A stretch of 64,000 nucleotides of DNA from Candidatus Nomurabacteria bacterium (GCA_031255735.1 JAIRRY010000026.1:13524-77523), one strand, 5' to 3'; counted from the first letter of the stretch, positions 4,215 through 43,930 are shown. Numbers and translations: made by a program. The notes: generated from the letters alone by a model not told the origin.

Positions 4215-4301
4215 ATGAAGGTATATTTTGTTAGACACGGGCAAACTGATCAAAACCTTGATATGGCCGCTGGTAAGGACATGGAAGAATACGAGATATA
4301 A
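4215..4301 (+). pseudogene. N-terminal stub of a histidine phosphatase (phosphoglycerate-mutase family) gene
   Basis: ATG preceded by TGCTATAAT. The translation is MKVYFVRHGQTDQNLDMAAGKDMEEYEI followed by a stop. The RHG motif opening is typical of the family, but the ORF ends after 28 codons, exactly where composition turns AT-rich. Confidence 0.45.
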
Positions 4302-4711
4302 TCTACGATTTCACTGTGTATTTTACCCATGTAAATCGCAGCAATTAAGCCGCATTTTAAGTAAAAAATAACAAAATCATAAAAATAAACCGAATCTTGC
4401 ACTGGGTTTTAATAGAACTCTAACAATCTAAAAGACTTGAAAAACGTAACATAAACCAGGGTCGGCCTGCTTTCTTAAGTTTCAACAATTTGCAAATAGC
4501 CAAAAACCGCCATTTCTATGGAAGGCTTGCTGGCAGTAAGAGTAACTTCGGGTTATGCAACGTTGGTTTTATCTTGGCCATGCATTAGCTCAACGGTATA
4601 CTTGTAGCATTCCGGATTTTTCATATATGAAAAACTGCCCGACATAGTAAAAGCCCCCGACACACTGCATTTCTACAGGGTATCAGGGACTCGTTTTACC
4701 TACTCTTGAGC

Positions 4712-5974: not shown

Positions 5975-6120
5975 GAGGGTGGTAATATTAGTGTTTTATA
6001 ATGAAAAATAGCAGTATTTCTAGGATATATAATTACATTAGAAAGGTTTTGGTGGGTTCTAAGTGGAGTGAAAAATGGATAAAAAAGGGTAGTATATTTT
6101 TAACGGTCTGAGCTGGTTAC
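5975..6120. repeat. left copy of an imperfect direct repeat of about 145 bp bracketing the island cassette
   Basis: It aligns by eye with 14299-14446, for example TAGTGTTTTAT, AGGATATATAATTACAT, GGTTT-GGTG and CTAAGT-GAGT-AAAAA. The right end is a decayed version of the tRNA-Pro 3'-end-like segment. Confidence 0.7.
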
Positions 6121-6349: not shown

Positions 6350-6375
6350 GGACACCTAGAGCGGGTGTCCTTTTT
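6350..6375 (+). promoter_or_regulatory. terminator-like hairpin in the leader of the 1656-aa gene
   Basis: Stem GGACACC (6350-6356), a 7-nt loop, stem GGTGTCC (6364-6370), then TTTTT. It lies about 27 nt upstream of the ATG at 6402 and downstream of a TGCTATAAT box (6235-6243). Confidence 0.35.
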
Positions 6376-6401
6376 CTGAGGCGGCCGTTAGAAAGCAAAG
6401 T

Positions 6402-9400
6402 ATGATAGATAAAGAACCAAATATTAGCTCGTCTGAGGCGGTCGGCGAAGAGCTGCAAGATAAAGTGGATGCAACGATTATCGCGGCTACTTCGCTTAAA
6501 AAGACATTACTACCAAAGCGCAAAATCGAGGAATTCACTACGCCAGAATATGTACCAGAATACATTCCGTCGCCGAATGATAGGCACGATCAGCTCCCCA
6601 AACGAATACGAGCGACAGTCGACAAATACTTAGCTCATGTGGGCGAGAATCCACAGGAGGAAGATCATTCGGAAAACTATGAGCAAAATGTTCGTACTGC
6701 TGCAGCGCTACTTGAATTTTTCTCTGGAAAGCCCGGTAAAATTCGTCGAACTGGTAGCACATACAGAAATGAGCAATATGACAATAAAATTATTGATACG
6801 ATGATGCGAGCCATCGAGCAACAAAAACCAATAACAATTTTTGGTTTGTCTTTTTCGCCAAAATATCGTAATCCCAACTATTCTAATGGGAATCTGTTGC
6901 CGGATATGGCAAATTATCTCGCCATGTCTAATCTGCAACAGATTGCTCATGGAGCAAATGCGATTTATCCTCAAGGCGGGGTTGACTTTGTGGTTGGTTA
7001 TGAGGGTAAGATTTATCAGCAATTGGGTAAATATTCTGATGACGATGTAAGAAAAACGCTCGAAACAATCAATTTACTCAATGACCAAGCGAAGATGAAG
7101 GTAGCTAATGATGGCTCACCGAATCGCGTTCGCGTCGTCGATACAAGTGATTTAGTACACGAGTGTCTGCTTAATAATCAGTCAGAAGATTCAGAAGATT
7201 TTCGTCGCACCTTGGTCAGAAAACGTCGAGCGATACGTGAAGACTATGAAACAGGATACGAAACACTGATTTCGGAATTATCTGATGAGGGCGAAGATCG
7301 AGAGGTAGTGTTGCAGCGTATCGACAACTTGAAGCAAGATCGCATATTATCAAAAACAATTCGAGGCGCAGTTCAAGGGCTAGAGCAAGCAAAAGCGTCC
7401 CTATTGGAATCTGATGAGATGAAGGGCGAAACAGAAAGCAAGATTGATAGCAAAGTCAAAACTTTATCGACCTATGCTGAAATTGAAGCATGGAAAAACT
7501 TTTGGCTGACAACTACTTCCCCAGATATGTTTGCAGAGGGTGAGGATCCGGAACAGTATGCTACGAAAACTGCCATTGGCTATAAGGCGTTTAATGAAAT
7601 TAAGTATGAAGGCGGGAAGGGTGGTCGTGGTATTTTAGGTTTCTCTTCTAAGATTTTACCAATAACGGTAAACGGAACAAACCGAAAAATGAATTTCCAA
7701 TTAGTCCCAGAGTGGAATTATTATCCTCATCATCGTATGACAGCTAGAATAATGGATGCAAAATCGCAACGATACGCCTGGAAACCAATCAGCCAACAAG
7801 AAATGAATGATTTAAATACAGTATTTGTCCCTAGATTTATAGAGGGGTATAATTACCCATTCTATTATGAGCAACTTGTACCAGACACAGATATGTCGTC
7901 GCGAACTTCAATGGGCGCATCCGCAGAGCTACTTAAGTCTGAGGATGGCGGACGTTATATTGCTAAAACAGCCCTGTACGCAAATGGTGCCGAGCACTTA
8001 CTAAAACAAATATCAAAGATGCAAGCGATGAGGGAGGCTGGGATAGACATTATTCCAGAAATAATGGAAAGCAATATCAAAGAACACGGAATTAGGTATC
8101 TAATGCCGTATTTAGGCGATAAGGCACTAGATGGAGCAATGTTGTCAGAAAATCCATTATCTAACACCGAGGGACAGTTCCCTCAACTTCTGAATGGTCT
8201 TTATGGAAAACTATGGTCAATTGGGGAGAGAAAAACCGGCCCCACTAATTTTAGTGAATGCCACATGCGTTCGGTAGAAAAAGGTCTTCAGGCAGTAGAA
8301 CAATCTGATGACTTATGGCTGAATGACAATGAGCTTATTTTAGTGAATGGGAGACAGCAATTTAACCTGAAGATTGCTCTGGACTTATTAAAAAAATCTA
8401 ACCTGAACTTGGATAAGGTCTTTTCTGCTTCTATTATCCCTGAGTTTACTCATGGAGACCTGCATCTTGGAAACATTTTTATGGATGGCGACAATTTGCA
8501 GCTGATAGATATCAACGGTAATACTGAAAGAGATAACGTATCCATAGAGTTTGAGCTTTCGCGTTTGGTCTTAAGCTATTATCGGCAGATAATTCGTGAC
8601 GGAGAATACTCAATCGTCACTGACGAAAACGGCAATGATAATATTATTTACACCGAGAGAGGTAAAGAACTATTAGACGCACGAGAAAAGGCTCTTGAAT
8701 CTATTATGCAAAACCCCAATCTAAAAGAAGTGTTGACTGAAGAATCACTGATGAAAATTAAACTCCTTGAAGCATTAGATATCGCAAGCGTGTTCAATAA
8801 GCGTCCAGATGAACAGAAAGAAGGAACATATTTGATTGGTACGTCACTATTAAATGAGGTAATTCGTGATGGTGGGTTTGCGGATGACGCAATCTTGAAC
8901 TTAATGAGGCAAAAAATTAACGTTGACAATTATCGGGATGCTGAAGTTTACTCAAATATGGAAACTATCTTTCAGCAGTACTTGGGCGACAGATGGTCTG
9001 GCTATTCGATATCGCACATGTTTGATCAGTTTGTGCTGAGTGGGATCGCCAAAGATGGCAAGGTTGAAAGTTTTCTAACAGACAATAATATTCTGCCAGA
9101 TGAAATTAATAGAAACTATACTGGAGAAGAAAGTGCTTCGGGCGAGCGAATTATTAAGCAAGGCAATCAAGGATTATTACTGGCTTGGCAACAAATAAAC
9201 TTCCCTGAAAATGATCCAGGCAAGCTATTCCCATCCTTTGCTATTGAAGAACGTGCCATTTGGGATGCTATAAACAGTCATGAACCGTTACTTGTCGGTG
9301 ATCAACAATATTCCGTGGAAGGTATGTTGGGTTTAGGCAAAGAATCAAAAGTCTTCGCCGCCAAAACACCTGACGGAAAGTCGGTGGCAATAAAAATTGG

Positions 9401-11372
9401 GCTACAAAAACTTGATCCAGAATTTAAATATGCCGAAGATTTGAAAACGAGGTCAGGAGAGATTGCCCATCGATTCCCTGAATATCTCTCATACGATTCC
9501 GAAAAAAATATTATTGCTATGGAATTGATAGGTGGAAGCCCAGCTGAAGATGTTGTTCATTCGCTCGAAACACCTGACGAATGGGTAGATTTCGTGTCAA
9601 ATATGTCTGGCATAGTCAGTGACATCGCCACGCTAAACGAAAGAGGCATTTTTGCTGGTCAATTTAACCTTCGTAATGTCATTGTCGATGATGACGGAAA
9701 TTATCGTATAATCGATCCGTTATTTGAGGGTAGTCAAGATGTCTACGAATCAAAGCAAATTCTTCGCATAATGGGCGTACTAGTCCAGAAGATATACCAA
9801 ACAGACCCTGGCCGTTTCCCGCTGGACGTAAAGTCAGCGAATTCTGATATTGAACTCCGCAACCTGCGATATCCGGACGGCATTCTTCAAACATTATTAG
9901 AAAAAGAGATTAATATTCCAGAACCAATCAACAGTGAGCTCATCAAAACGTTTACGAAATATCTGCAAAATGGTATTGCGACTAAAACATTAGAAGATGC
10001 ATCCTCCGATTTTCGAGGTATTAGACGGTTGTGTGAAATTTATCAAAACCCCGATCGTGCGCCTAAATTTACCGGCATTCCTAGCGCACTAGCAGTAGAT
10101 CTAAATGGCACATTAGAAGAAGGTGGCATAATCAATGCCCAAACTGTGAAATCCATAAACCGTCTTTCTGGTCGTGGAATTCCTGTTGTTGTCATTTCCG
10201 GCAAGAACATAACTGGTATTGCCGAATTGCTGCAGACAAACGGCATTAGCCCCGCATCAATAGATATTATTTCTGATGAAGGTGCATATTACGTAAGTTC
10301 TGGTGAGGTCGTAAATAATATAACGATAGAAAATGTCGAAGGATTAACGGAAAATATTCGTTCCTATCTCAATAATCAAAACATCTTATCGACAGTTAGG
10401 AATAATGAACGTAGAATAAACATTCTACTTCCCCAAATCGATGAAACTGTGTTGTCTGCCATTTCGCAATATGCATTCAGTCAAAATTTAAACGTATCAT
10501 TAAATAGAGAAGTAGGACAAATTGACCTTACCGCTAAAGGGACGAATAAACAATCAGGTCTTTTGGCGGTCGCCAGTCGACACGGCATTGATCCGAACGA
10601 CATTGTTCGCGTAGGCAACGAACCAGATGGCAACGATAAAGAGATGTTATTTGACGAAGACGGCAACCGCAGAGATAACGCTTTCATGGTAACAAACTCA
10701 GCTGAAACAACGGCTATAATTGAATCTCTGACTGATACTATCGGCTATGGTGGCAAATATCGTTCTGGCGAAATGCCTACCCAGTTTGGCAGCTTTGACG
10801 ACTATGCCACAGCGACTGACTTTGAGGTTGAGCGCTTACGAACATCGGCAAAAACATCATCAAATATCTTCTATCCATATTCCGCACTAGAAAAGCGTTT
10901 TGACAAAAAAGACGAGAAAACTGTTGATTATAAATGGATACTTCGAGATTCTGAGTCGAATCCAATAGGTTTTACATCGATTAACGCAGTCGGCGGCAAT
11001 GGGTATTACAATATCAGCGGAATTTATTTAACGCCCGAAACGCGTGGGCATGGGGTGGCTTCTAAGGCAATGACTCAATTGAAGAATTTTGCTAGCAATA
11101 ATATTACTGGATTTCAAGGCTTTCGGGTCCGAATAGCTGAGGCAAACTTACCTTCTCGTATGTTGTTTGAAAGATCTGGCTTTGTACCGACAGAAGTGCT
11201 AGAAGATGACTATACGCTTATAGTCGATGGTAAAGAGCAAAGAGCAAAAACGATTGTTTATGAATATTCTCCAACTTCCCAAGTTCAAGGTATAAATCTA
11301 GCGCAGAATGACGTTTTGACTGGCGAGCAACTGAGGATAGTGTATAACGAGCAAAAAGAATTGAAAGCATAA
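6402..11372 (+). CDS. 1656-aa multidomain fusion: DIT1/PvcA-like (isonitrile synthase family) + APH-type kinase + degenerate protein kinase + HAD-IIB hydrolase + GNAT acetyltransferase
   Basis: Uninterrupted ORF with these motifs:
- aa 143-205: PITIFGLSFSPKYRNP...LLPDMANYLA...IYPQGGVDFVVGYEGKIY (PvcA/DIT1-like core).
- aa 684-705: HGDLHLGNIFMDGDNLQLIDING (APH Brenner motif).
- aa 976-1000: GLGKESKVF...VAIK.
- aa 1084-1106: FAGQFNLRNVIVDDDGNYRIIDP (catalytic HxD lost).
- aa 1231-1237: AVDLNGT, and aa 1405-1415: GNEPDGNDKEM (HAD motifs I and IV).
- aa 1545-1556: PETRGHGVASKA (GNAT motif A). Confidence 0.8.
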   Translation: MIDKEPNISSSEAVGEELQDKVDATIIAATSLKKTLLPKRKIEEFTTPEYVPEYIPSPNDRHDQLPKRIRATVDKYLAHVGENPQEEDHSENYEQNVRTAAALLEFFSGKPGKIRRTGSTYRNEQYDNKIIDTMMRAIEQQKPITIFGLSFSPKYRNPNYSNGNLLPDMANYLAMSNLQQIAHGANAIYPQGGVDFVVGYEGKIYQQLGKYSDDDVRKTLETINLLNDQAKMKVANDGSPNRVRVVDTSDLVHECLLNNQSEDSEDFRRTLVRKRRAIREDYETGYETLISELSDEGEDREVVLQRIDNLKQDRILSKTIRGAVQGLEQAKASLLESDEMKGETESKIDSKVKTLSTYAEIEAWKNFWLTTTSPDMFAEGEDPEQYATKTAIGYKAFNEIKYEGGKGGRGILGFSSKILPITVNGTNRKMNFQLVPEWNYYPHHRMTARIMDAKSQRYAWKPISQQEMNDLNTVFVPRFIEGYNYPFYYEQLVPDTDMSSRTSMGASAELLKSEDGGRYIAKTALYANGAEHLLKQISKMQAMREAGIDIIPEIMESNIKEHGIRYLMPYLGDKALDGAMLSENPLSNTEGQFPQLLNGLYGKLWSIGERKTGPTNFSECHMRSVEKGLQAVEQSDDLWLNDNELILVNGRQQFNLKIALDLLKKSNLNLDKVFSASIIPEFTHGDLHLGNIFMDGDNLQLIDINGNTERDNVSIEFELSRLVLSYYRQIIRDGEYSIVTDENGNDNIIYTERGKELLDAREKALESIMQNPNLKEVLTEESLMKIKLLEALDIASVFNKRPDEQKEGTYLIGTSLLNEVIRDGGFADDAILNLMRQKINVDNYRDAEVYSNMETIFQQYLGDRWSGYSISHMFDQFVLSGIAKDGKVESFLTDNNILPDEINRNYTGEESASGERIIKQGNQGLLLAWQQINFPENDPGKLFPSFAIEERAIWDAINSHEPLLVGDQQYSVEGMLGLGKESKVFAAKTPDGKSVAIKIGLQKLDPEFKYAEDLKTRSGEIAHRFPEYLSYDSEKNIIAMELIGGSPAEDVVHSLETPDEWVDFVSNMSGIVSDIATLNERGIFAGQFNLRNVIVDDDGNYRIIDPLFEGSQDVYESKQILRIMGVLVQKIYQTDPGRFPLDVKSANSDIELRNLRYPDGILQTLLEKEINIPEPINSELIKTFTKYLQNGIATKTLEDASSDFRGIRRLCEIYQNPDRAPKFTGIPSALAVDLNGTLEEGGIINAQTVKSINRLSGRGIPVVVISGKNITGIAELLQTNGISPASIDIISDEGAYYVSSGEVVNNITIENVEGLTENIRSYLNNQNILSTVRNNERRINILLPQIDETVLSAISQYAFSQNLNVSLNREVGQIDLTAKGTNKQSGLLAVASRHGIDPNDIVRVGNEPDGNDKEMLFDEDGNRRDNAFMVTNSAETTAIIESLTDTIGYGGKYRSGEMPTQFGSFDDYATATDFEVERLRTSAKTSSNIFYPYSALEKRFDKKDEKTVDYKWILRDSESNPIGFTSINAVGGNGYYNISGIYLTPETRGHGVASKAMTQLKNFASNNITGFQGFRVRIAEANLPSRMLFERSGFVPTEVLEDDYTLIVDGKEQRAKTIVYEYSPTSQVQGINLAQNDVLTGEQLRIVYNEQKELKA

Positions 11373-11373
11373 A

Positions 11374-13590
11374 ATGGAGTTTACTGAACTAAAAACAGCT
11401 GACCCATTCGTCGAGCAAACCTCCGAACGACCCGTTATTAGGCAAGAATTAGTGGGACCAGAAGAAGATATTGAGCGAAATCCACTACAACTCAGAGAAA
11501 TTACATTGGAGGATTACAACCACGATCTATCAAAAGAACGGGTTGAAACAGCTCAAAATATTCTGCAACAAGAAATGAGCAATACCAGATATGATTCATT
11601 CTTGCTCCTCAAGCAAGCGGCATCATATCAAGACATGCTACAAGCATCACAAAGTCCACATATTGAAGATGTGTTTAGGGGCAGCCAGGGTCTTACTTGT
11701 GTCCAGATGGCAGAACTAATGAAGGCAAGGTTTGCTGAGCATGGGCTAAAATCTCATTTTGTCTGTTTCAACACACAAGGGCAGATTAATTCCCCTGGGC
11801 ACGACTACTCTCCTATTGGTCATATCGCAAGTGCGGTTCCATTCGATGACAGTGGGCAGAAGCAGTTTCTCCTTGCTGATTTGGGTCTGGCTGTACCAAA
11901 AGTTATGACATTCCCAGAAGGCGGCTCATCGAAAGAATATCACTATGGTGATAAAAAGTGTCAAGTAATATTTACGAACACCGACGAACAAAAGCCCTAT
12001 GAAATAGTTATATCTTCTTACGATCCTAAAGCCCAAGAGTATCATATTGCTGACCGTGCTTCATTTGACCCTTTTACTGCCCTAGAGAATCCCAGCGTGG
12101 TCACGAATGATAATATGCGTACTCTCCCCGGTTTCCGCACCACAAAATATGACACTGACGGCAGGGTTCTCGCTAATATTTCCGCCGATCTAAAAAAGAG
12201 ATCCATCAAGCTTAAAATAATGGGTGATGACGGTGAGTATATCACCAAAATACTGTCTTCCAACGACGACATTAATACGCCTGAGATAACGCAGTTGTTG
12301 TCTCGCGCTTCTAATTTTTTAGGGGAAACGGAAGAAGATCTTTTGGGTGATTTGCAAGTTTTTCGTGAACATGGCGAAGAATATTATGAAACCGTTATAG
12401 CTCCTTCCGTTAAGGAACAGATCCGACAAGAACAGATACTCAGCAAAGAAAAATCAGAAGCGACAGATACAAATCTCAAACTGTTCGTCAAGGATGTTCT
12501 TTCAGATTTTGTCTCTGGTGAAATAGATTTTCATGAGCACAAATATAATGTTCGGTTCAATTTAACCGGCACTTCTGGCGAAGAAATATTAGCCACACCA
12601 CAACAGCCAATAAGGCATTCTTCTGCATATGGAGAAGTCGTTCCGACGCTAAGAATTACAGATATAGCGAAAATGTCACATGCCATAGATAGTTTTCTGG
12701 CAGCTTGTTCGCAATACCAAAATCTGCTCTGGGTAAAAAGTCGCATGAATCATAGTCCCGAGCAAATAAAGAAAAACCTCTTAACTCAAATATGGTTTAA
12801 CGCCACAGAAGCCGATTTTGCAAATCCAGAGGATTTTATTAATAGACAAGAGCGATTTGTCCGAGATGATAAATTGGATGATTATAACAGGCAACATCTT
12901 TCAGCACCGATCCCGTCTCTTGAAAATTGCCGATTATCTACTGTGAGGGCAGAGCAAAGCGGTAGCAACGAGTCCCCTTATATGTTAAATTTTGCGCTAA
13001 ACAGCGAAACTGCCACCTATAATCTTCCTAGCATTAGATATGCTACTGATGGCGACGCTGCCTATATTTTTTCCATCCAAAAACCTAAAAATATCGATCA
13101 AACCGATGAAGACCGACTTCTCGCCAAAAAGCTCAATCGCCGTTTCTTTAAACTGAACAAGGGGGTATTAGATGCGGAATCAGACGAGTTTAAGGAGTAT
13201 CAGCGACTACGCTCTGACGACGCATTGATCGGGGATGAGCCCTACCCAGAGAACATCAGTGATGTCACACCGGCTTCACTAATAAGTTTACTGTCAACAT
13301 TGGACGCCATGAAGAGTAAGGGGATTATAACTATTAAAGTCCCGTATTTCTGTCCATTACGCTATCAAGCACATGCGCGCCTCGGGCTAGAAGAGCAAGA
13401 ACGAATCCAAGACAATGTCAGTAATAAATTTCTCCGTACTTTTCGACGCTTAGCATTTCACTTTGACAGTATAAAAATGTCCAATATAGATAAATCTGGT
13501 TATACCGAAATTGACATTTATGCTCTAGATATCGGTAATTCCGATATTCTAAATGAAGTTATTTCGGCAATAAAAACACCTGAAAGTTAG
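11374..13590 (+). CDS. 738-aa protein with N-terminal arylamine N-acetyltransferase-like / transglutaminase-like Cys-His-Asp region
   Basis: The start is 2 nt after the stop of the 1656-aa gene. Candidate triad: GSQGLTC(109)VQMAELMKARFAEHGL, then PIGH(150)IASAV, then FLLAD(169)LGLAVP. This mirrors the NAT pattern (GGxC..., H, D-x-G). The C-terminal 400 aa are unrecognised. Confidence 0.65.
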   Translation: MEFTELKTADPFVEQTSERPVIRQELVGPEEDIERNPLQLREITLEDYNHDLSKERVETAQNILQQEMSNTRYDSFLLLKQAASYQDMLQASQSPHIEDVFRGSQGLTCVQMAELMKARFAEHGLKSHFVCFNTQGQINSPGHDYSPIGHIASAVPFDDSGQKQFLLADLGLAVPKVMTFPEGGSSKEYHYGDKKCQVIFTNTDEQKPYEIVISSYDPKAQEYHIADRASFDPFTALENPSVVTNDNMRTLPGFRTTKYDTDGRVLANISADLKKRSIKLKIMGDDGEYITKILSSNDDINTPEITQLLSRASNFLGETEEDLLGDLQVFREHGEEYYETVIAPSVKEQIRQEQILSKEKSEATDTNLKLFVKDVLSDFVSGEIDFHEHKYNVRFNLTGTSGEEILATPQQPIRHSSAYGEVVPTLRITDIAKMSHAIDSFLAACSQYQNLLWVKSRMNHSPEQIKKNLLTQIWFNATEADFANPEDFINRQERFVRDDKLDDYNRQHLSAPIPSLENCRLSTVRAEQSGSNESPYMLNFALNSETATYNLPSIRYATDGDAAYIFSIQKPKNIDQTDEDRLLAKKLNRRFFKLNKGVLDAESDEFKEYQRLRSDDALIGDEPYPENISDVTPASLISLLSTLDAMKSKGIITIKVPYFCPLRYQAHARLGLEEQERIQDNVSNKFLRTFRRLAFHFDSIKMSNIDKSGYTEIDIYALDIGNSDILNEVISAIKTPES

Positions 13591-13667: not shown

Positions 13668-14159
13668 TCAAAAAACATTCGTCTTTAAAAACTTGAGGAA
13701 CGATAGGGATTTCAACTGTTCGTTGAAGTTTAACATTATGTTCGCTAGATAATCTATCGCCGACCCCACGGTGCCATCACTGCCACGTTCTACACTCCCA
13801 GATAACCCGCCACTAGACCCACCTCTATCTCCAAAGAAACCTGATGGAACTTTACCAACTATAATATTTGGCTTTTGAGGTTTATTTACCTCTTGAACAC
13901 CAACCATGATTACTACACAGGTCAAAGCGTCAACGATACCATCGTGTTTCTCAATTCCAAATCCTACTAGCTGAGTCAAGAGATTTTTCGTCTTGTCTCT
14001 AGGAAACAGTATCTGTCCATTCTTAATTCGGCGCGAAATCATACTCAACCTAGCTCGTTTATCTTGGTTTGGCTTGTAACACCTAACGTCTATGTAGTAA
14101 TTAGATAATGCCCATATTGAAAGGTTTGAACACTGAGAGAAGAGTGTATTAGTCAACAT
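13668..14159 (-). pseudogene. phage terminase large-subunit C-terminal fragment (prophage remnant)
   Basis: 163-aa ORF. The segment DKRARLSMISRRIKNGQILFPRD...LLTQLVGFGIEKHDGIVDALTCVV matches the conserved C-terminal nuclease tail of large terminases (...v.fP...L..el..F...HDD.vDAl). The ATPase part is absent. Confidence 0.45.
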
Positions 14160-14298: not shown

Positions 14299-14446
14299 TA
14301 GGGTGATGGTAACCTTAGTGTTTTATGATGTAGAATAGTAGTCTTTATAGGATATATAATTACATAAAAAGGTTTGGTGACTCTAAGTAGAGTAAAAACG
14401 ACTAAAAATGGCTTTACATTTTGAATGGTCGGGGTGCTTGGTTGAG
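14299..14446. repeat. right copy of the direct repeat of about 145 bp; contains a duplicated tRNA-Pro(UGG) 3' end plus terminator flank
   Basis: It aligns with 5975-6120. Positions 14418-14436 (ATTTTGAATGGTCGGGGTG) are identical to 22082-22100. That segment covers the last 11 nt of tRNA-Pro(UGG), including CCA, and the 8 nt beyond it. Looser similarity extends over 14393-14436 versus 22056-22100. Confidence 0.75.
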
Positions 14447-14503: not shown

Positions 14504-14580
14504 TGGTCGGGACTGGCGGATTTGAACCGCCGACCTCACCGTCCCGAACGGTGCGCGCTACCAAGCTGCGCCAAGCCCCG
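14504..14580 (-). tRNA. tRNA-Pro (anticodon CGG)
   Basis: The reverse complement folds as a cloverleaf. Acceptor CGGGGCU/AGUCCCG, anticodon stem CACCG/CGGUG with loop UUCGGGA, T-loop GGUUCAAAUCC, encoded CCA. Confidence 0.9.
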
Positions 14581-17049: not shown

Positions 17050-19041
17050 ATGCCACACCTAATTAAAAAATCATCCGGCCGCATTGTCCATCCGTGGGCA
17101 CGGCAGAATTTAGTGATTCTAGCAGTTTGCTTGCTGGTCATTTCCGCCATGTCAATTAGTTATGCTGTACTTGGCACAACAATTAATATTGGTGGCCAAG
17201 CTTCAATTAAACAAACTGAACCAATCCGCATCACTGCCGTTCAACCATCCAGCTCGCAGCCTGCTTGCGCTTCTGCAACTTATCCCCCAACTTGGAGTGA
17301 TACAGCCTTCCAAGTAGACGGCGCGCTAACTGCTTTAGATTGTAAATTAATTTTTGACTTAAAAATCAAAAACGAAACTAACGACATGGTTTATATAAAA
17401 CAGATCTTGGAAGATTCTTTTAATAACTCTGCCAACATGCAATACTCTTTTTCATTCACACTTAATACGCCCAGTTCAGTCATAGCCGCTCAAAGCGAAC
17501 AGCAATTTTCATTAACTTTGAGCTATAAACCAAGTTTGTCGTCACTACCAGCGCTGACTAGCTTTATGGCCAGTTTTCGTTTAGTGATTGACGTTGTTAC
17601 GCCACCAATTTTAGTGGTCAACAATAGCGCACGCAATTTCGAAATTTTTCGCGGCGAAACTAGCTTCACGCCGGCTAATCTTACTAGTCGTTTATCAGCA
17701 TTAGACGATATAGAGGGTAATATTACAAACCAAATCACCAGAACTTGTAGAAAAGGTAACGTCAATATTGCTTGCCCTTCATCATGGTTAGATTGGGATG
17801 CTGGCAATTACACTATCACGTACAATGTTAGTAATTTATTTGGACTAGCAGCAACTCCAGTTACTATGCACATTGAAAACTGGCAGTTTATCAAAATTGC
17901 TAGTGGCCAATATCACGGCATTGCGCTAGGTTCTAATGGTTCTGTTTGGACGTGGGGGTATAATAACCGTGGTCAACGCGGGATTGGTGTGAACGGTCTT
18001 GCCAATACTATCAACAGCGGATCTCCTTCGCTAATTAGTAAAAATGAGTTTGGTGACCAACGCATTATCGACATCGCCGGCGCTCATAATACATCGTGTG
18101 CTGTGGCGGCCAATGGCCGAGCTTATTGTTGGGGTAGCGATGACGGAGGTGCACTTGGTAACGGTGGTAGTAATGGCGATACTAACTCACCATCGGCTGT
18201 CGCAATGCCAAGTGGCATAACTTTCAAGCAAATCTCTGGTTCACATGGCACAAGCTCGGATGCTACATTTGGTGCGCTAGGCTCGGATGGTAACGTTTAT
18301 ACATGGGGAACTGGTTCTAGCTATCGATTAGGCACCGGTAGCACTAATAATGCAACTACTCCGACCCGAATCACCTCAAGTGGCGATATCGTGCAAGTTT
18401 CGCAAGGTAATATAGGAGGCAGCGCCGTAACTGTGTCAGGTGAGGTTTACGTTTGGGGAGCAAATGGGCAAGGCCAGCTAGCGCGTGGCAATATCACAGC
18501 GTCCAACGCCACCACCAGCAAACCTAGTCTGGTCAGCGGCCTGTCTGGCGTTAAACAAGTGAGCTACGGCGGTTATGGTGGTAGTGGCTTTATTGTTTCT
18601 TGCAAAACCGATGGCACAGCCTACGCTTGGGGTTGGGCATGGGGCGTGAGGGGCAATATCCCATCTACTGAAGTATCAAAACCATTACAAATTGCAGGAC
18701 TGAGTGGTGTTCGCTTTGTGACGGCTGGCGTGGATTACGCTCATTATGTGGTGGGCAACGATGTTTGGAGCGTTGGGTATTCTAACTACGGCGAAACTTT
18801 CACTGGCACAGCCACTCGCATCACTCCTATAAAATCTACTTTAAACAACGTCACCGGTAATGTTGGCACAACAAGTGGCGGATGGGATAATGCCTACATA
18901 CTAAACGCTACTGGTACTATGGTCTACTCCATCGGTTATAATAATGGTAATGATCGCGAACTCGGTAGCTCAATAACATCTACAATATCAACCGGCGCAG
19001 TTGTGCCGTGGACACCGACCATTACAATGTTGGAATGGTAA
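17050..19041 (+). CDS. secreted chimeric protein: TasA-like N-terminal module + Ig-like domain + RCC1-repeat beta-propeller
   Basis: 663 aa. The N-terminal anchor/signal region AVLGTTINIGGQASIKQ parallels AALGANLLVNGTASIQS of ORF 21342-21905. Multiple RCC1-type repeats are present (GQYHGIALGSNGSVWTWGYNNRGQRG, AGAHNTSCAVAANGRAYCWGSDDGGALG, VYVWGANGQGQL). Confidence 0.75.
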   Translation: MPHLIKKSSGRIVHPWARQNLVILAVCLLVISAMSISYAVLGTTINIGGQASIKQTEPIRITAVQPSSSQPACASATYPPTWSDTAFQVDGALTALDCKLIFDLKIKNETNDMVYIKQILEDSFNNSANMQYSFSFTLNTPSSVIAAQSEQQFSLTLSYKPSLSSLPALTSFMASFRLVIDVVTPPILVVNNSARNFEIFRGETSFTPANLTSRLSALDDIEGNITNQITRTCRKGNVNIACPSSWLDWDAGNYTITYNVSNLFGLAATPVTMHIENWQFIKIASGQYHGIALGSNGSVWTWGYNNRGQRGIGVNGLANTINSGSPSLISKNEFGDQRIIDIAGAHNTSCAVAANGRAYCWGSDDGGALGNGGSNGDTNSPSAVAMPSGITFKQISGSHGTSSDATFGALGSDGNVYTWGTGSSYRLGTGSTNNATTPTRITSSGDIVQVSQGNIGGSAVTVSGEVYVWGANGQGQLARGNITASNATTSKPSLVSGLSGVKQVSYGGYGGSGFIVSCKTDGTAYAWGWAWGVRGNIPSTEVSKPLQIAGLSGVRFVTAGVDYAHYVVGNDVWSVGYSNYGETFTGTATRITPIKSTLNNVTGNVGTTSGGWDNAYILNATGTMVYSIGYNNGNDRELGSSITSTISTGAVVPWTPTITMLEW

Positions 19042-22054: not shown

Positions 22055-22078
22055 ATAAAAACGACCCTAAAAGGTCGT
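22055..22078 (-). terminator. intrinsic terminator after tRNA-Pro(UGG)
   Basis: The minus strand reads ACGACC-UUUUAG-GGUCGU-UUUUAUU, starting 11 nt after the CCA end. Confidence 0.65.
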
Positions 22079-22089
22079 TGTATTTTGAA

Positions 22090-22167
22090 TGGTCGGGGTG
22101 AGAGGACTTGAACCTCCGGCCTCTGCGTCCCAAACGCAGCGCGCTAATCCAACTGCGCCACACCCCG
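22090..22167 (-). tRNA. tRNA-Pro (anticodon UGG)
   Basis: Reverse complement CGGGGUG...CUGCG-UUUGGGA-CGCAG...GGUUCAAGUCC...CACCCCGACCA. The cloverleaf is regular. Confidence 0.9.
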
Positions 22168-22275: not shown

Positions 22276-22352
22276 TGGTCGGGGCAGCGAGATTTGAACT
22301 CACGACCTCACGGCCCCCAGCCGTGCGCGCTACCAGGCTGCGCCATGCCCCG
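22276..22352 (-). tRNA. tRNA-Pro (anticodon GGG)
   Basis: Reverse complement CGGGGCA...CACGG-CUGGGGG-CCGUG...GUUCAAAUCUC...UGCCCCGACCA. Confidence 0.9.
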
Positions 22353-38817: not shown

Positions 38818-38894
38818 GGCACCGTAGCTCAGTTGGTTAGAGCGCAGGACTCATAAGCCTGAGGTCACAAGTTCGATCCTTGTCGGTGCTACCA
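38818..38894 (+). tRNA. tRNA with CAU anticodon (elongator Met-like)
   Basis: GGCACCGUAGCUCAGUUGGUUAGAGC...loop CUCAUAA...GGUCACAAGUUCGAUCC...CGGUGCUACCA, preceded by GTATAAT. The body resembles elongator tRNA-Met. Confidence 0.85.
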
Positions 38895-43214: not shown

Positions 43215-43291
43215 TGGTTGCGGGGGGTGGATTTGAACCACCGACCTTTTGGTTATGAGCCAAACGAGCTACCAGACTGCTCTACCCCGCG
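43215..43291 (-). tRNA. tRNA with CAU anticodon, initiator-like acceptor end
   Basis: Reverse complement CGCGGGGUAGAGCAG...UUUGG-CUCAUAA-CCAAA...GGUUCAAAUCC...CCCCGCAACCA. The C1/A72 mismatch is as in bacterial tRNA-fMet, but the anticodon stem lacks the three G-C pairs. Confidence 0.8.
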
Positions 43292-43854: not shown

Positions 43855-43930
43855 GGGGGATTAGCTCAGTGGTTAGAGCAGTCGGCTCATAACCGATTGG
43901 TCGCTGGTTCAAATCCAGCATCCCCCACCA
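43855..43930 (+). tRNA. tRNA with CAU anticodon (Met or lysidine-modified Ile2)
   Basis: GGGGGAUUAGCUCAGUGGUUAGAGC...GUCGG-CUCAUAA-CCGAU...GGUUCAAAUCC...AUCCCCCACCA, preceded by GGTATAAT. Identity cannot be settled from sequence alone. Confidence 0.85.

Follow-up and report, generated by a model that had tools for sequence, protein, structure and literature searches.

What might an ultrasmall, host-dependent bacterium do with a single polypeptide that carries five enzyme-like domains? The question is raised by a gene at positions 6402 to 11372 (+ strand) of a 64,000-nucleotide (nt) stretch of a Candidatus Nomurabacteria genome (GCA_031255735.1, JAIRRY010000026.1:13524-77523), which is referred to here as the window. 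The gene is one uninterrupted open reading frame (ORF) of 1656 amino acids (aa), and its product, here called the megaenzyme, combines, in this order, a PvcA/DIT1-like domain, an APH-type kinase, a RIO/Bud32-like kinase fold, a HAD-IIB-like domain, and a GNAT domain. We find that the megaenzyme is a genuine, conserved multidomain protein of Patescibacteria (the candidate phyla radiation [CPR]), bacteria that, to our knowledge, are thought to be nearly devoid of specialized metabolism. The architecture appears to be new and the constituent domain families are known; the function discussed below is predicted from the domains. Three domains (PvcA-like, APH-like, and GNAT) are catalytically plausible, and two (RIO-like and HAD-like) are conserved and atypical. 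A first-pass annotation, made from the DNA sequence alone, had described the same ORF, five modules, and degenerate motifs. These points held: the ORF is intact, NCBI calls the same protein, and all five domain assignments were upheld by profile, fold, or motif evidence. The assembly-line tailoring and antibiotic-like product that it proposed did not fare so well, as nothing shows either. Of the Pfam families it expected, DIT1_PvcA, Hydrolase_3, and Acetyltransf_1 scored above their gathering thresholds, and APH and RIO1 scored below.

The identical 1656-aa sequence is present in a public protein collection, on an 84.8-kb contig, under the NCBI name [quoted passage not shown] (MAG, metagenome-assembled genome). 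The DNA is a cellular bacterial chromosome, as is evident from flanking genes that include ruvA, ruvB, those for an L,D-transpeptidase and an ABC ATPase, and seven tRNA genes, and a run of 1656 stop-free codons in DNA of 41% GC is not attributable to chance. Five further clusters of 1670 to 1699 aa are collinear with the window protein at 43 to 52% identity, and genome and metagenome scans extended the set by a yak-duodenum MAG of Saccharibacteria, a contig from Trout Bog lake, an unclassified MAG, and several others. About nine independent assemblies or lineages carry collinear full-length homologs (43 to 52% identity), and the catalytic-type motifs are all invariant across this family. An artifact, either a chimeric misassembly or separate genes read as one ORF, was a concern of the first-pass annotation, and the observation in its favor is that the Saccharibacteria homolog from yak duodenum (L013) is split into ORFs of 791 and 843 aa. 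This split is a single frameshift near aa 750 to 763 (L013 4465-4507) with overlapping query coordinates, on which grounds a natural gene split was rejected; the frameshift is either a sequencing error or the mark of a pseudogene. In every other lineage, the gene is a single collinear ORF of 1656 to 1699 aa, and these lineages come from different samples and assemblers. With independent assemblies in agreement on one collinear ORF, misassembly was ruled out, and the chance of an artifact is negligible.

In more distant proteins, domain order was read with domain profiles built from the megaenzyme family. The full PvcA-APH-RIO-HAD-GNAT order is present in P0015 (1783 aa). Omnitrophota proteins named "diphthine--ammonia ligase" (P0024, P0077, P0080, and P0081; 2322 to 3598 aa) show PvcA-APH-RIO-HAD, behind which come DUF4116 repeats, nine in number, and a Diphthami_syn_2 domain; the partial protein P0037 shows (PvcA)-kinase-HAD-GNAT, and P0012 and P0022 (846 to 863 aa) consist of PvcA-APH only. 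On the basis of these orders, we take the PvcA-like domain and the APH-like kinase to be the constant core of the protein. The search for further instances of the domain order, which had been proposed in the first-pass annotation, thus revealed the same order in distant relatives, and its recurrence argues that the domains work together. As far as found, the distribution is limited to ultrasmall host-dependent bacteria (Nomurabacteria, Saccharibacteria, and other CPR), with related giant proteins in Omnitrophota. No relatives were detected in phage records or IMG/VR contigs, and the relatives in plasmid records were stand-alone PvcA-like genes in Bacillaceae replicons only. In a 2018 survey of isocyanide synthases (ICSs), the architectures were single-domain ICS, ICS-dioxygenase, and fungal ICS-nonribosomal peptide synthetase (NRPS) only (PMC5974471). 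The five-domain order of the megaenzyme is absent from that set, in line with the earlier remark that this combination had not been seen before, and our literature search found no paper connecting PF05141 to CPR or Omnitrophota.

The N-terminal DIT1/PvcA-like domain, of the isonitrile-synthase fold, occupies aa 96 to 495 (6687-7886, +) and ends in the subfamily motif YPFYYEQL. Its match to DIT1_PvcA (PF05141), at 32.8 bits, exceeds the gathering score (26.4) and extends over profile positions 3 to 157 of 273 only. Sequence profiles from Pfam and the PDB alike cover the first half of the PvcA family alone, and it is in this half that the domain resembles the family in sequence (PI-F, F-x-P-K-x-x-N, PDMA, and Y-P-G). 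The second half was recovered through a search with the N-domain profile, which led to P0007, a stand-alone 371-aa PF05141 protein on a Bacillota-like contig that aligned across both halves up to a shared C-terminal Y-P-F-Y-Y (hhalign probability, 99.5%). An AlphaFold model of aa 60 to 500 was computed from an 8-sequence alignment (predicted local distance difference test [pLDDT], 70). The top 8 Foldseek matches of this model in the PDB were PIsnA (9dh4/9dhm) and PvcA (3e59), with E values of 9e-10 to 6e-7 and alignments of ~413 to 428 columns that span nearly the whole target; the next match had an E value of 0.04. Identity in these structural alignments was only ~15%. The model supports the presence of the whole PvcA fold in the N-domain. 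The fold is interrupted by an insert at aa ~263 to 360 (7188-7481, +), close to the aa ~265 to 360 given previously, which is predicted as helices with a pLDDT of 84 to 91 over most of its length. This insert of ~100 aa is missing from the stand-alone relatives P0007 and P0008 and from canonical enzymes.

Proteins with such a domain are rare: 60 of 1.84 billion representative proteins match the N-domain profile at an E value of ≤1e-3. Presumed canonical enzymes, which are the 300- to 400-aa proteins among the weakest matches and served as the "canonical" comparison set, reach the profile only at E values of ~1e-5 to 1e-3. Relative to this set, the Lys and Asn of F-x-x-K-x-x-N are preserved in the N-domain, as are P-D, Y-P-G, a Gly, and the C-terminal His, with K154, N157, P167-D168, G202, and H444 aligned to positions conserved in the canonical enzymes. 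By these alignments, the PvcA-like domain is assigned to a rare, divergent PF05141 subfamily that is marked by the YPFYY motif and by GYEG in place of SDG. Stand-alone members of the subfamily are encoded directly downstream of an LCP (LytR-CpsA-Psr) cell wall gene in two Bacillota contexts, outside biosynthetic clusters. The LCP-adjacent genes lie at L010 8987-11116 and L014 7887-9942, and one host is Pontibacillus sp. ALD_SL1; the two loci partly share neighbors, namely Asp23, an AI-2E/YtvI-type transporter, and aspartate kinase. Known bacterial isonitrile pathways pair the synthase with an iron/2-oxoglutarate (Fe/2OG) dioxygenase of the IsnB/PvcB type. No Fe/2OG dioxygenase (PF02668) was present among the listed called genes of five homologs' loci (L001-L009), and a Pfam scan detected none fused to the megaenzyme.

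The second domain is an APH/ELK-type kinase (aa 496 to 860; 7887-8981, +) with an intact catalytic loop, HGDLHxGN (aa 684 to 691), and an intact IDING (aa 702 to 706). Both motifs are invariant in the family, and residues H684, D686, N691, and D703 are invariant even when distant relatives are included. A long insert separates the N-lobe from the catalytic loop, as is typical of APH/ELK kinases. Against the PDB, the profile of this domain gave weak, mixed matches (best E value, 0.003) to protein kinases, lanthipeptide-synthetase kinases, maltokinase, and fructosamine/ribulosamine kinases. These matches are too weak and mixed to single out a specific kinase subfamily or substrate class.

The third domain has a RIO/Bud32-like kinase fold (aa 966 to 1225; 9297-10076, +). 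RIO1 (PF01163) narrowly missed its gathering score (21.8 versus 22 bits; aa 966 to 1135), and the best sequence match was a Bud32-like PDB chain (E value, 3.5e-6) in which HGDLTTSN is aligned to the megaenzyme's AGQFNLRN. The H-x-D of the catalytic loop is thus replaced by A-G-Q, with both His and Asp gone, whereas the Gly-loop, the Lys of VAIK (K998), N1092, and the metal-binding D1105 are retained and invariant. That this domain is probably a pseudokinase had already been proposed, and the alignment bears out the replacement of the HxD His and Asp. The altered loop, (A/Y)GQFNLRN, recurs in the distant relatives P0015 and P0037 and in P0024 of Omnitrophota.

A comparable departure is seen in the HAD-IIB-like domain (aa 1226 to 1445; 10077-10736, +), which matches Hydrolase_3 (PF08282) with 42.3 bits against a gathering score of 20.9; the NCBIfam model HAD-SF-IIB gave 32.8, below its cutoff of 41.8. 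The domain can be aligned to 1wr8, an archaeal phosphoglycolate phosphatase (DIDGT with DLNGT and GDGEND with GNEPNEND), and its HAD-IIB matches in NCBIfam and the PDB are sugar-phosphate or phosphoglycolate phosphatases. In motif I, DLNGT, the nucleophile D1233 is present and N1235 stands at the Asp+2 position instead of the general acid/base Asp, as the first-pass annotation had noticed. S1266, K1383, and D1412 of motifs II to IV are present, and in motif IV, GNEPxGND, N1406 takes the place of the first acid. Every relative that shows the PvcA-kinase-HAD order keeps DxN, and D-x-N-x-T recurs in P0015, P0024, and P0037; P0039, in which the PvcA-like domain is mostly lost, has a canonical DVDHT. 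Because both replacements recur in distant relatives, the degenerate RIO-like and HAD-like motifs look like the outcome of selection for altered function rather than of decay, and, given their conservation across phyla, the two domains are probably functional in a nonstandard way. The pairing of phosphorylation with dephosphorylation that had been read into the protein is not assured, as these two domains are without the usual general base or acid.

The C-terminal GNAT acyltransferase domain (aa 1491 to 1625; 10872-11276, +) is ordinary. It matches Acetyltransf_1 (PF00583; 36.0 versus 20.7 bits) and Acetyltransf_3 (PF13302; 38.7 versus 25.4 bits) above their gathering scores. Within its acyl-CoA-binding motif, R-G-H-G-V-A, G1549 and G1551 are invariant in the family and R1548 is seen in the window protein. 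The nearest solved relatives are SpeG-type enzymes (E values, ~1e-3). The megaenzyme has no transmembrane (TM)-like segment that we could find and its N terminus is hydrophilic, from which we infer a soluble, cytoplasmic protein.

The megaenzyme does not stand alone. Two nucleotides after its stop codon begins a conserved partner gene of an orphan family (738 aa; 11374-13590, +), which the first-pass annotation had left out. Partner homologs of 720 to 785 aa (33 to 41% identity) are present in most lineages, directly downstream of the megaenzyme in the window, L001, L002-4, L007-8, L009, L013, L016, L017, and L019. Their start codon often overlaps the megaenzyme stop codon and is otherwise ≤18 nt away, an arrangement by which the two genes are predicted to form a cotranscribed operon. 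The partner is without matches in Pfam, NCBIfam, PHROG, or PDB sequences (PF00797 included), its homologs make up only three clusters among 5.8 billion proteins, fusions of a partner-like domain to a relative are absent, and no TM-like segment was detected in it. Residues C109, H150, and D169 of the partner are invariant in 7 sequences, and we take their spacing to recall that of arylamine N-acetyltransferases (NATs). The corresponding region (11656-12273, +) is tentatively described as NAT-like: in a model built from 3 sequences only (pLDDT, 43), Cys109 lies at a helix start with His150 and Asp169 on successive strands, and the top Foldseek matches of this poor model were arylamine N-acetyltransferases (E values, 7e-4 to 8e-3; TM score, ~0.25).

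The two genes lie in a region, between 4 and 14 kb of the window, where GC content falls to 0.40 to 0.415, versus 0.44 to 0.50 in most of the window. The region contains an imperfect direct repeat, whose left copy (5980-6108, +) has a TATAAT-rich core and whose right copy (14307-14430, +) is 80% identical to it. The 129-nt repeat copies enclose a leader, the megaenzyme and partner genes, and a 163-aa ORF, in agreement with the earlier description of the megaenzyme as the main cargo of a repeat-bracketed cassette. An exact 18-mer, TAGGATATATAATTACAT, is common to both copies and occurs twice in the window, versus 0.1 times expected. The repeat, which was not found in the homologous loci L001-L013, could represent att-like scars or a duplicated promoter or intergenic sequence. 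The leader of ~300 nt closes with a terminator-like hairpin (8 bp, 5 GC pairs) and a T-run (6350-6378, +), ~25 nt upstream of the megaenzyme ATG; the hairpin may act as an attenuator or exert riboswitch-like control, and an Rfam scan of it returned nothing at the gathering threshold. The 163-aa ORF (13668-14159, -) corresponds to a fragment from the C-terminal part of a phage terminase large subunit (phrog_38; E value, 3.4e-6; profile positions 636 to 708 of 760). Located between the partner gene and tRNA-Pro(CGG), which lies just outside the right repeat (14504-14580, -), this fragment is probably a prophage remnant. In every homologous locus, the flanking genes are different, and they include an IS66 fragment and genes for Csx3, PIN, and ADP-ribosylglycohydrolase proteins. 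Because of the low GC content, the repeat, the terminase fragment, the adjacent tRNA-Pro, and the differing flanks, we conclude from sequence context that the gene pair acts as accessory cargo that has moved horizontally, within a decayed integrated element beside tRNA-Pro.

Other features of the surroundings are recorded here. At the left edge of the low-GC region, a truncated "VYFVRHGQT" ORF (4217-4303, +), MKVYFVRHGQTDQNLD, looks by eye like the remnant N terminus of a histidine-phosphatase (PGAM-type) gene. Part of the right repeat (14393-14436) also resembles 22056-22100, which adjoins tRNA-Pro(TGG). Three tRNA-Pro genes, with all of the anticodons CGG, TGG, and GGG, and three tRNA-Met(CAT) genes are located within 30 kb (14504-14580, 22090-22167, 22276-22352, 38818-38894, 43215-43291, and 43855-43930). 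A 663-aa RCC1-repeat (beta-propeller) protein is encoded at 17050-19041 (+), with genes for a DUF5305 protein and an S24/S26-like peptidase close by.

In the reaction of canonical PF05141 enzymes, C2 of ribulose-5-phosphate becomes linked to the alpha-amino group of Trp or Tyr (PMC5947517). Since these enzymes use an amino acid and ribulose-5-phosphate, we favor a small-molecule route, and we tentatively propose, with a little less than even confidence, that the substrate of the megaenzyme is a small molecule, either an amino acid or an amino-sugar-like compound, whose amino group is modified through PvcA-like, kinase, and GNAT steps. The task of the PvcA/DIT1-type domain would be to combine an amine and a keto-sugar phosphate by condensation into an N-C1 product (an isonitrile or N-formyl compound) or a ketimine adduct. 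The APH-type kinase would either provide or use up a phosphorylated hydroxyl, located on the sugar cosubstrate or on the product, and the GNAT domain would carry out acyl-CoA-dependent N-acylation, as the Cys-His-Asp domain of the partner may likewise do. The RIO-like and HAD-like domains would serve in nucleotide or phospho-ligand binding or in slow or atypical phosphotransfer; a role as binding or atypical modules is more likely for them than one as a standard kinase and phosphatase.

Several observations weigh against this proposal. In the subfamily, FPxKS is changed to FSPKx, PDxAE to PDMAN, and (S)DGxxF to GYEGxxY; with these conserved positions altered, the chemistry of the N-domain may therefore differ from that of canonical enzymes. 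APH (PF01636) gives the first kinase 18.2 bits, below its gathering score of 23.2; the homologous APH domain of P0039 passes with 30.1 bits and matches the APH profile of the megaenzyme family at an E value of 6e-72. A protein substrate for this kinase is possible, because its PDB matches mix protein and small-molecule kinases. The partner is reduced to a 60-aa remnant in L005/6 and missing in L012/L018, and its NAT-like reading rests on a model with a pLDDT of 43 that has no sequence-profile match behind it.

The megaenzyme could instead be, as the first-pass annotation read it, a canonical isonitrile natural-product synthase, whose N-domain makes a Tyr- or Trp-derived isonitrile that the other domains tailor to an antibiotic, metal-binding, or signaling compound. 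Pfam and fold membership in DIT1_PvcA and the alignment of K154, N157, P167-D168, G202, and H444 with conserved canonical positions are in accord with this reading, and fungi have fused multidomain ICS enzymes (PMC5974471). However, a partner of the Fe/2OG dioxygenase, P450, or NRPS-like kind is missing from the listed called genes of the five homologs' loci, the conserved motifs differ at several positions, the subfamily is so divergent that canonical ICSs match it at E values of ~1e-5 to 1e-3 only, and Dit1 shows that PF05141 is not uniformly isonitrile forming (PMC7345447). Given the missing dioxygenase partner, the divergent motifs, and the LCP-adjacent stand-alone members, the evidence for a classical isonitrile natural product is weak and we regard it as quite doubtful. 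A role in cell envelope or amino-sugar salvage is improbable but only slightly less doubtful. In such a role, the kinase, HAD-like, and GNAT domains would process scavenged amino sugars or wall precursors and the PvcA-like domain would make an N-formyl or otherwise N-modified amino acid for the wall. CPR bacteria rely on scavenging, and anomeric sugar kinases of the APH family work with HAD sugar-phosphate phosphatases, the kind of enzyme found among the HAD-IIB matches. The stand-alone genes that directly follow an LCP gene in two Bacillota contexts point in the same direction, as does Dit1, which supplies a precursor of the yeast spore wall (PMC7345447). Specific similarity to NahK, AmgK, MupP, or GNA1-type enzymes is nevertheless absent, the Asn at the HAD Asp+2 position speaks against an efficient phosphatase, and the island location and patchy distribution suit an accessory rather than a core envelope role.

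The remaining explanations look to conflict or to the host. A host-directed effector or toxin would be delivered by an episymbiont, with its kinase-fold, HAD-fold, and acetyltransferase domains modifying host proteins or metabolites and the partner acting as a chaperone, immunity protein, or co-effector. This would suit a protein whose carriers, as found, are all host dependent and ultrasmall (Nomurabacteria, Saccharibacteria, and further CPR, plus Omnitrophota for its relatives), an island that is variable, low in GC, and home to a phage remnant, and flanks that differ per locus and bring IS66-fragment, PIN, and ADP-ribosylglycohydrolase neighbors. The RIO/Bud32-like second kinase fold resembles protein kinases, and bacterial effectors include pseudokinase folds with atypical chemistry. 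Yet the protein has no signal peptide, TM segment, or recognizable secretion or translocation domain, its PvcA fold and APH-type loop are known from small-molecule enzymes, and its stand-alone relatives live in free-living Bacillota, so that we consider an effector unlikely, if conceivable. For an antiphage or conflict system, that is, a two-gene nucleoside triphosphate-dependent module in a defense island, one can cite the Csx3, HD, PIN, and AAA_33 genes near the L007 homolog, a weak match to TCAD9, a conflict-system kinase-like domain (E value, 0.017 here and 1.3e-5 in P0039), a weak PD-T4-6 match, and the patchy distribution. PADLOC, applied to the two genes along with three further ORFs from the region, nonetheless gave no significant match (best E value, 0.0034 at 14.5 bits; none for the partner), no nuclease, effector-pore, or NAD-depleting domain is present, and phage and viral collections hold no relatives; a defense function is very improbable.

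We therefore retain amino-group modification of a small molecule as the tentatively preferred reading. Its boldest form would make the self-contained, mobile megaenzyme of ultrasmall host-dependent bacteria (Patescibacteria, and Omnitrophota with a related giant protein) a fourth, undescribed ICS architecture that makes an isonitrile or N-formyl amino-acid-derived compound, or processes amine-ketose-phosphate adducts, for host interaction; the RIO-like and HAD-like domains, conserved though "dead," would have acquired a new use in phosphoryl or nucleotidyl chemistry. We think this form improbable. Nothing yet shows unusual chemistry. If the preferred reading is true, a conserved mobile enzyme that couples isonitrile-synthase-type C-N chemistry to ATP- and acyl-CoA-dependent steps would be a rare example in CPR and could lead to a molecule with a part in the relationship of symbiont and host. 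For isonitrile enzymology, the protein defines a rare, divergent subfamily of PF05141, and its stand-alone members in cultivable Bacillaceae are open to direct study.

Comparison with known systems places the megaenzyme as follows. With PvcA, IsnA, and PIsnA (PF05141; 3e59 and 9dh4), it has a fold in common over essentially the whole target and similar sequence in the N-terminal half, and its His aligns with the C-terminal His of that family. Unlike them, it has the helical insert of ~100 aa, four extra fused domains, and no dioxygenase partner, is without the S after K, has N for the E of PDxAE and GYEGxxY for (S)DGxxF, and is ~15% identical. Yeast Dit1 works with the P450 Dit2. Its probable product is N-formyl-tyrosine rather than an isocyanide, and it serves the formation of a spore wall precursor (PMC7345447). 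Dit1 belongs to the same Pfam family as the megaenzyme N-domain, so a member need not make a free isonitrile (PMC7345447), and it has an envelope-related role, as the LCP neighborhood suggests for the stand-alone subfamily members; it differs in being a single-domain, eukaryotic protein, with no closer sequence relationship shown. In the ICS-dioxygenase fusions (IsnAB and XanB) and the fungal ICS-NRPS (CrmA), the ICS stands at the start of a multidomain enzyme, as it does here (PMC5974471), whereas the partners in the megaenzyme are two kinase folds, a HAD domain, and a GNAT domain, none of which occurs in the surveyed architectures (PMC5974471).

RIO/Bud32 kinases have the Gly-loop, the Lys of VAIK, the catalytic-loop Asn, and the metal-binding Asp in common with the second kinase fold; their catalytic His and Asp correspond to A-G-Q in the megaenzyme, which is not linked to KEOPS or the ribosome. 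The bifunctional enzyme AAC(6')-Ie/APH(2'')-Ia carries a GNAT domain and an APH-type kinase on one polypeptide and acts on an amino-bearing small molecule. The megaenzyme shares these two domains with it; in AAC(6')-Ie/APH(2'')-Ia, they stand in the opposite order and PvcA, RIO, and HAD domains are absent, and a scan of resistance-family models (NCBIfam) gave no match to the megaenzyme. The Omnitrophota giants (P0024, P0077, P0080, and P0081) differ in having no GNAT domain and in their long extra N- and C-terminal regions, with DUF4116 and Diphthami_syn_2, that extend them to up to 3598 aa, but the PvcA-APH-RIO-HAD order and the degenerate GQFNLRN and DxN motifs are common to them and the megaenzyme.

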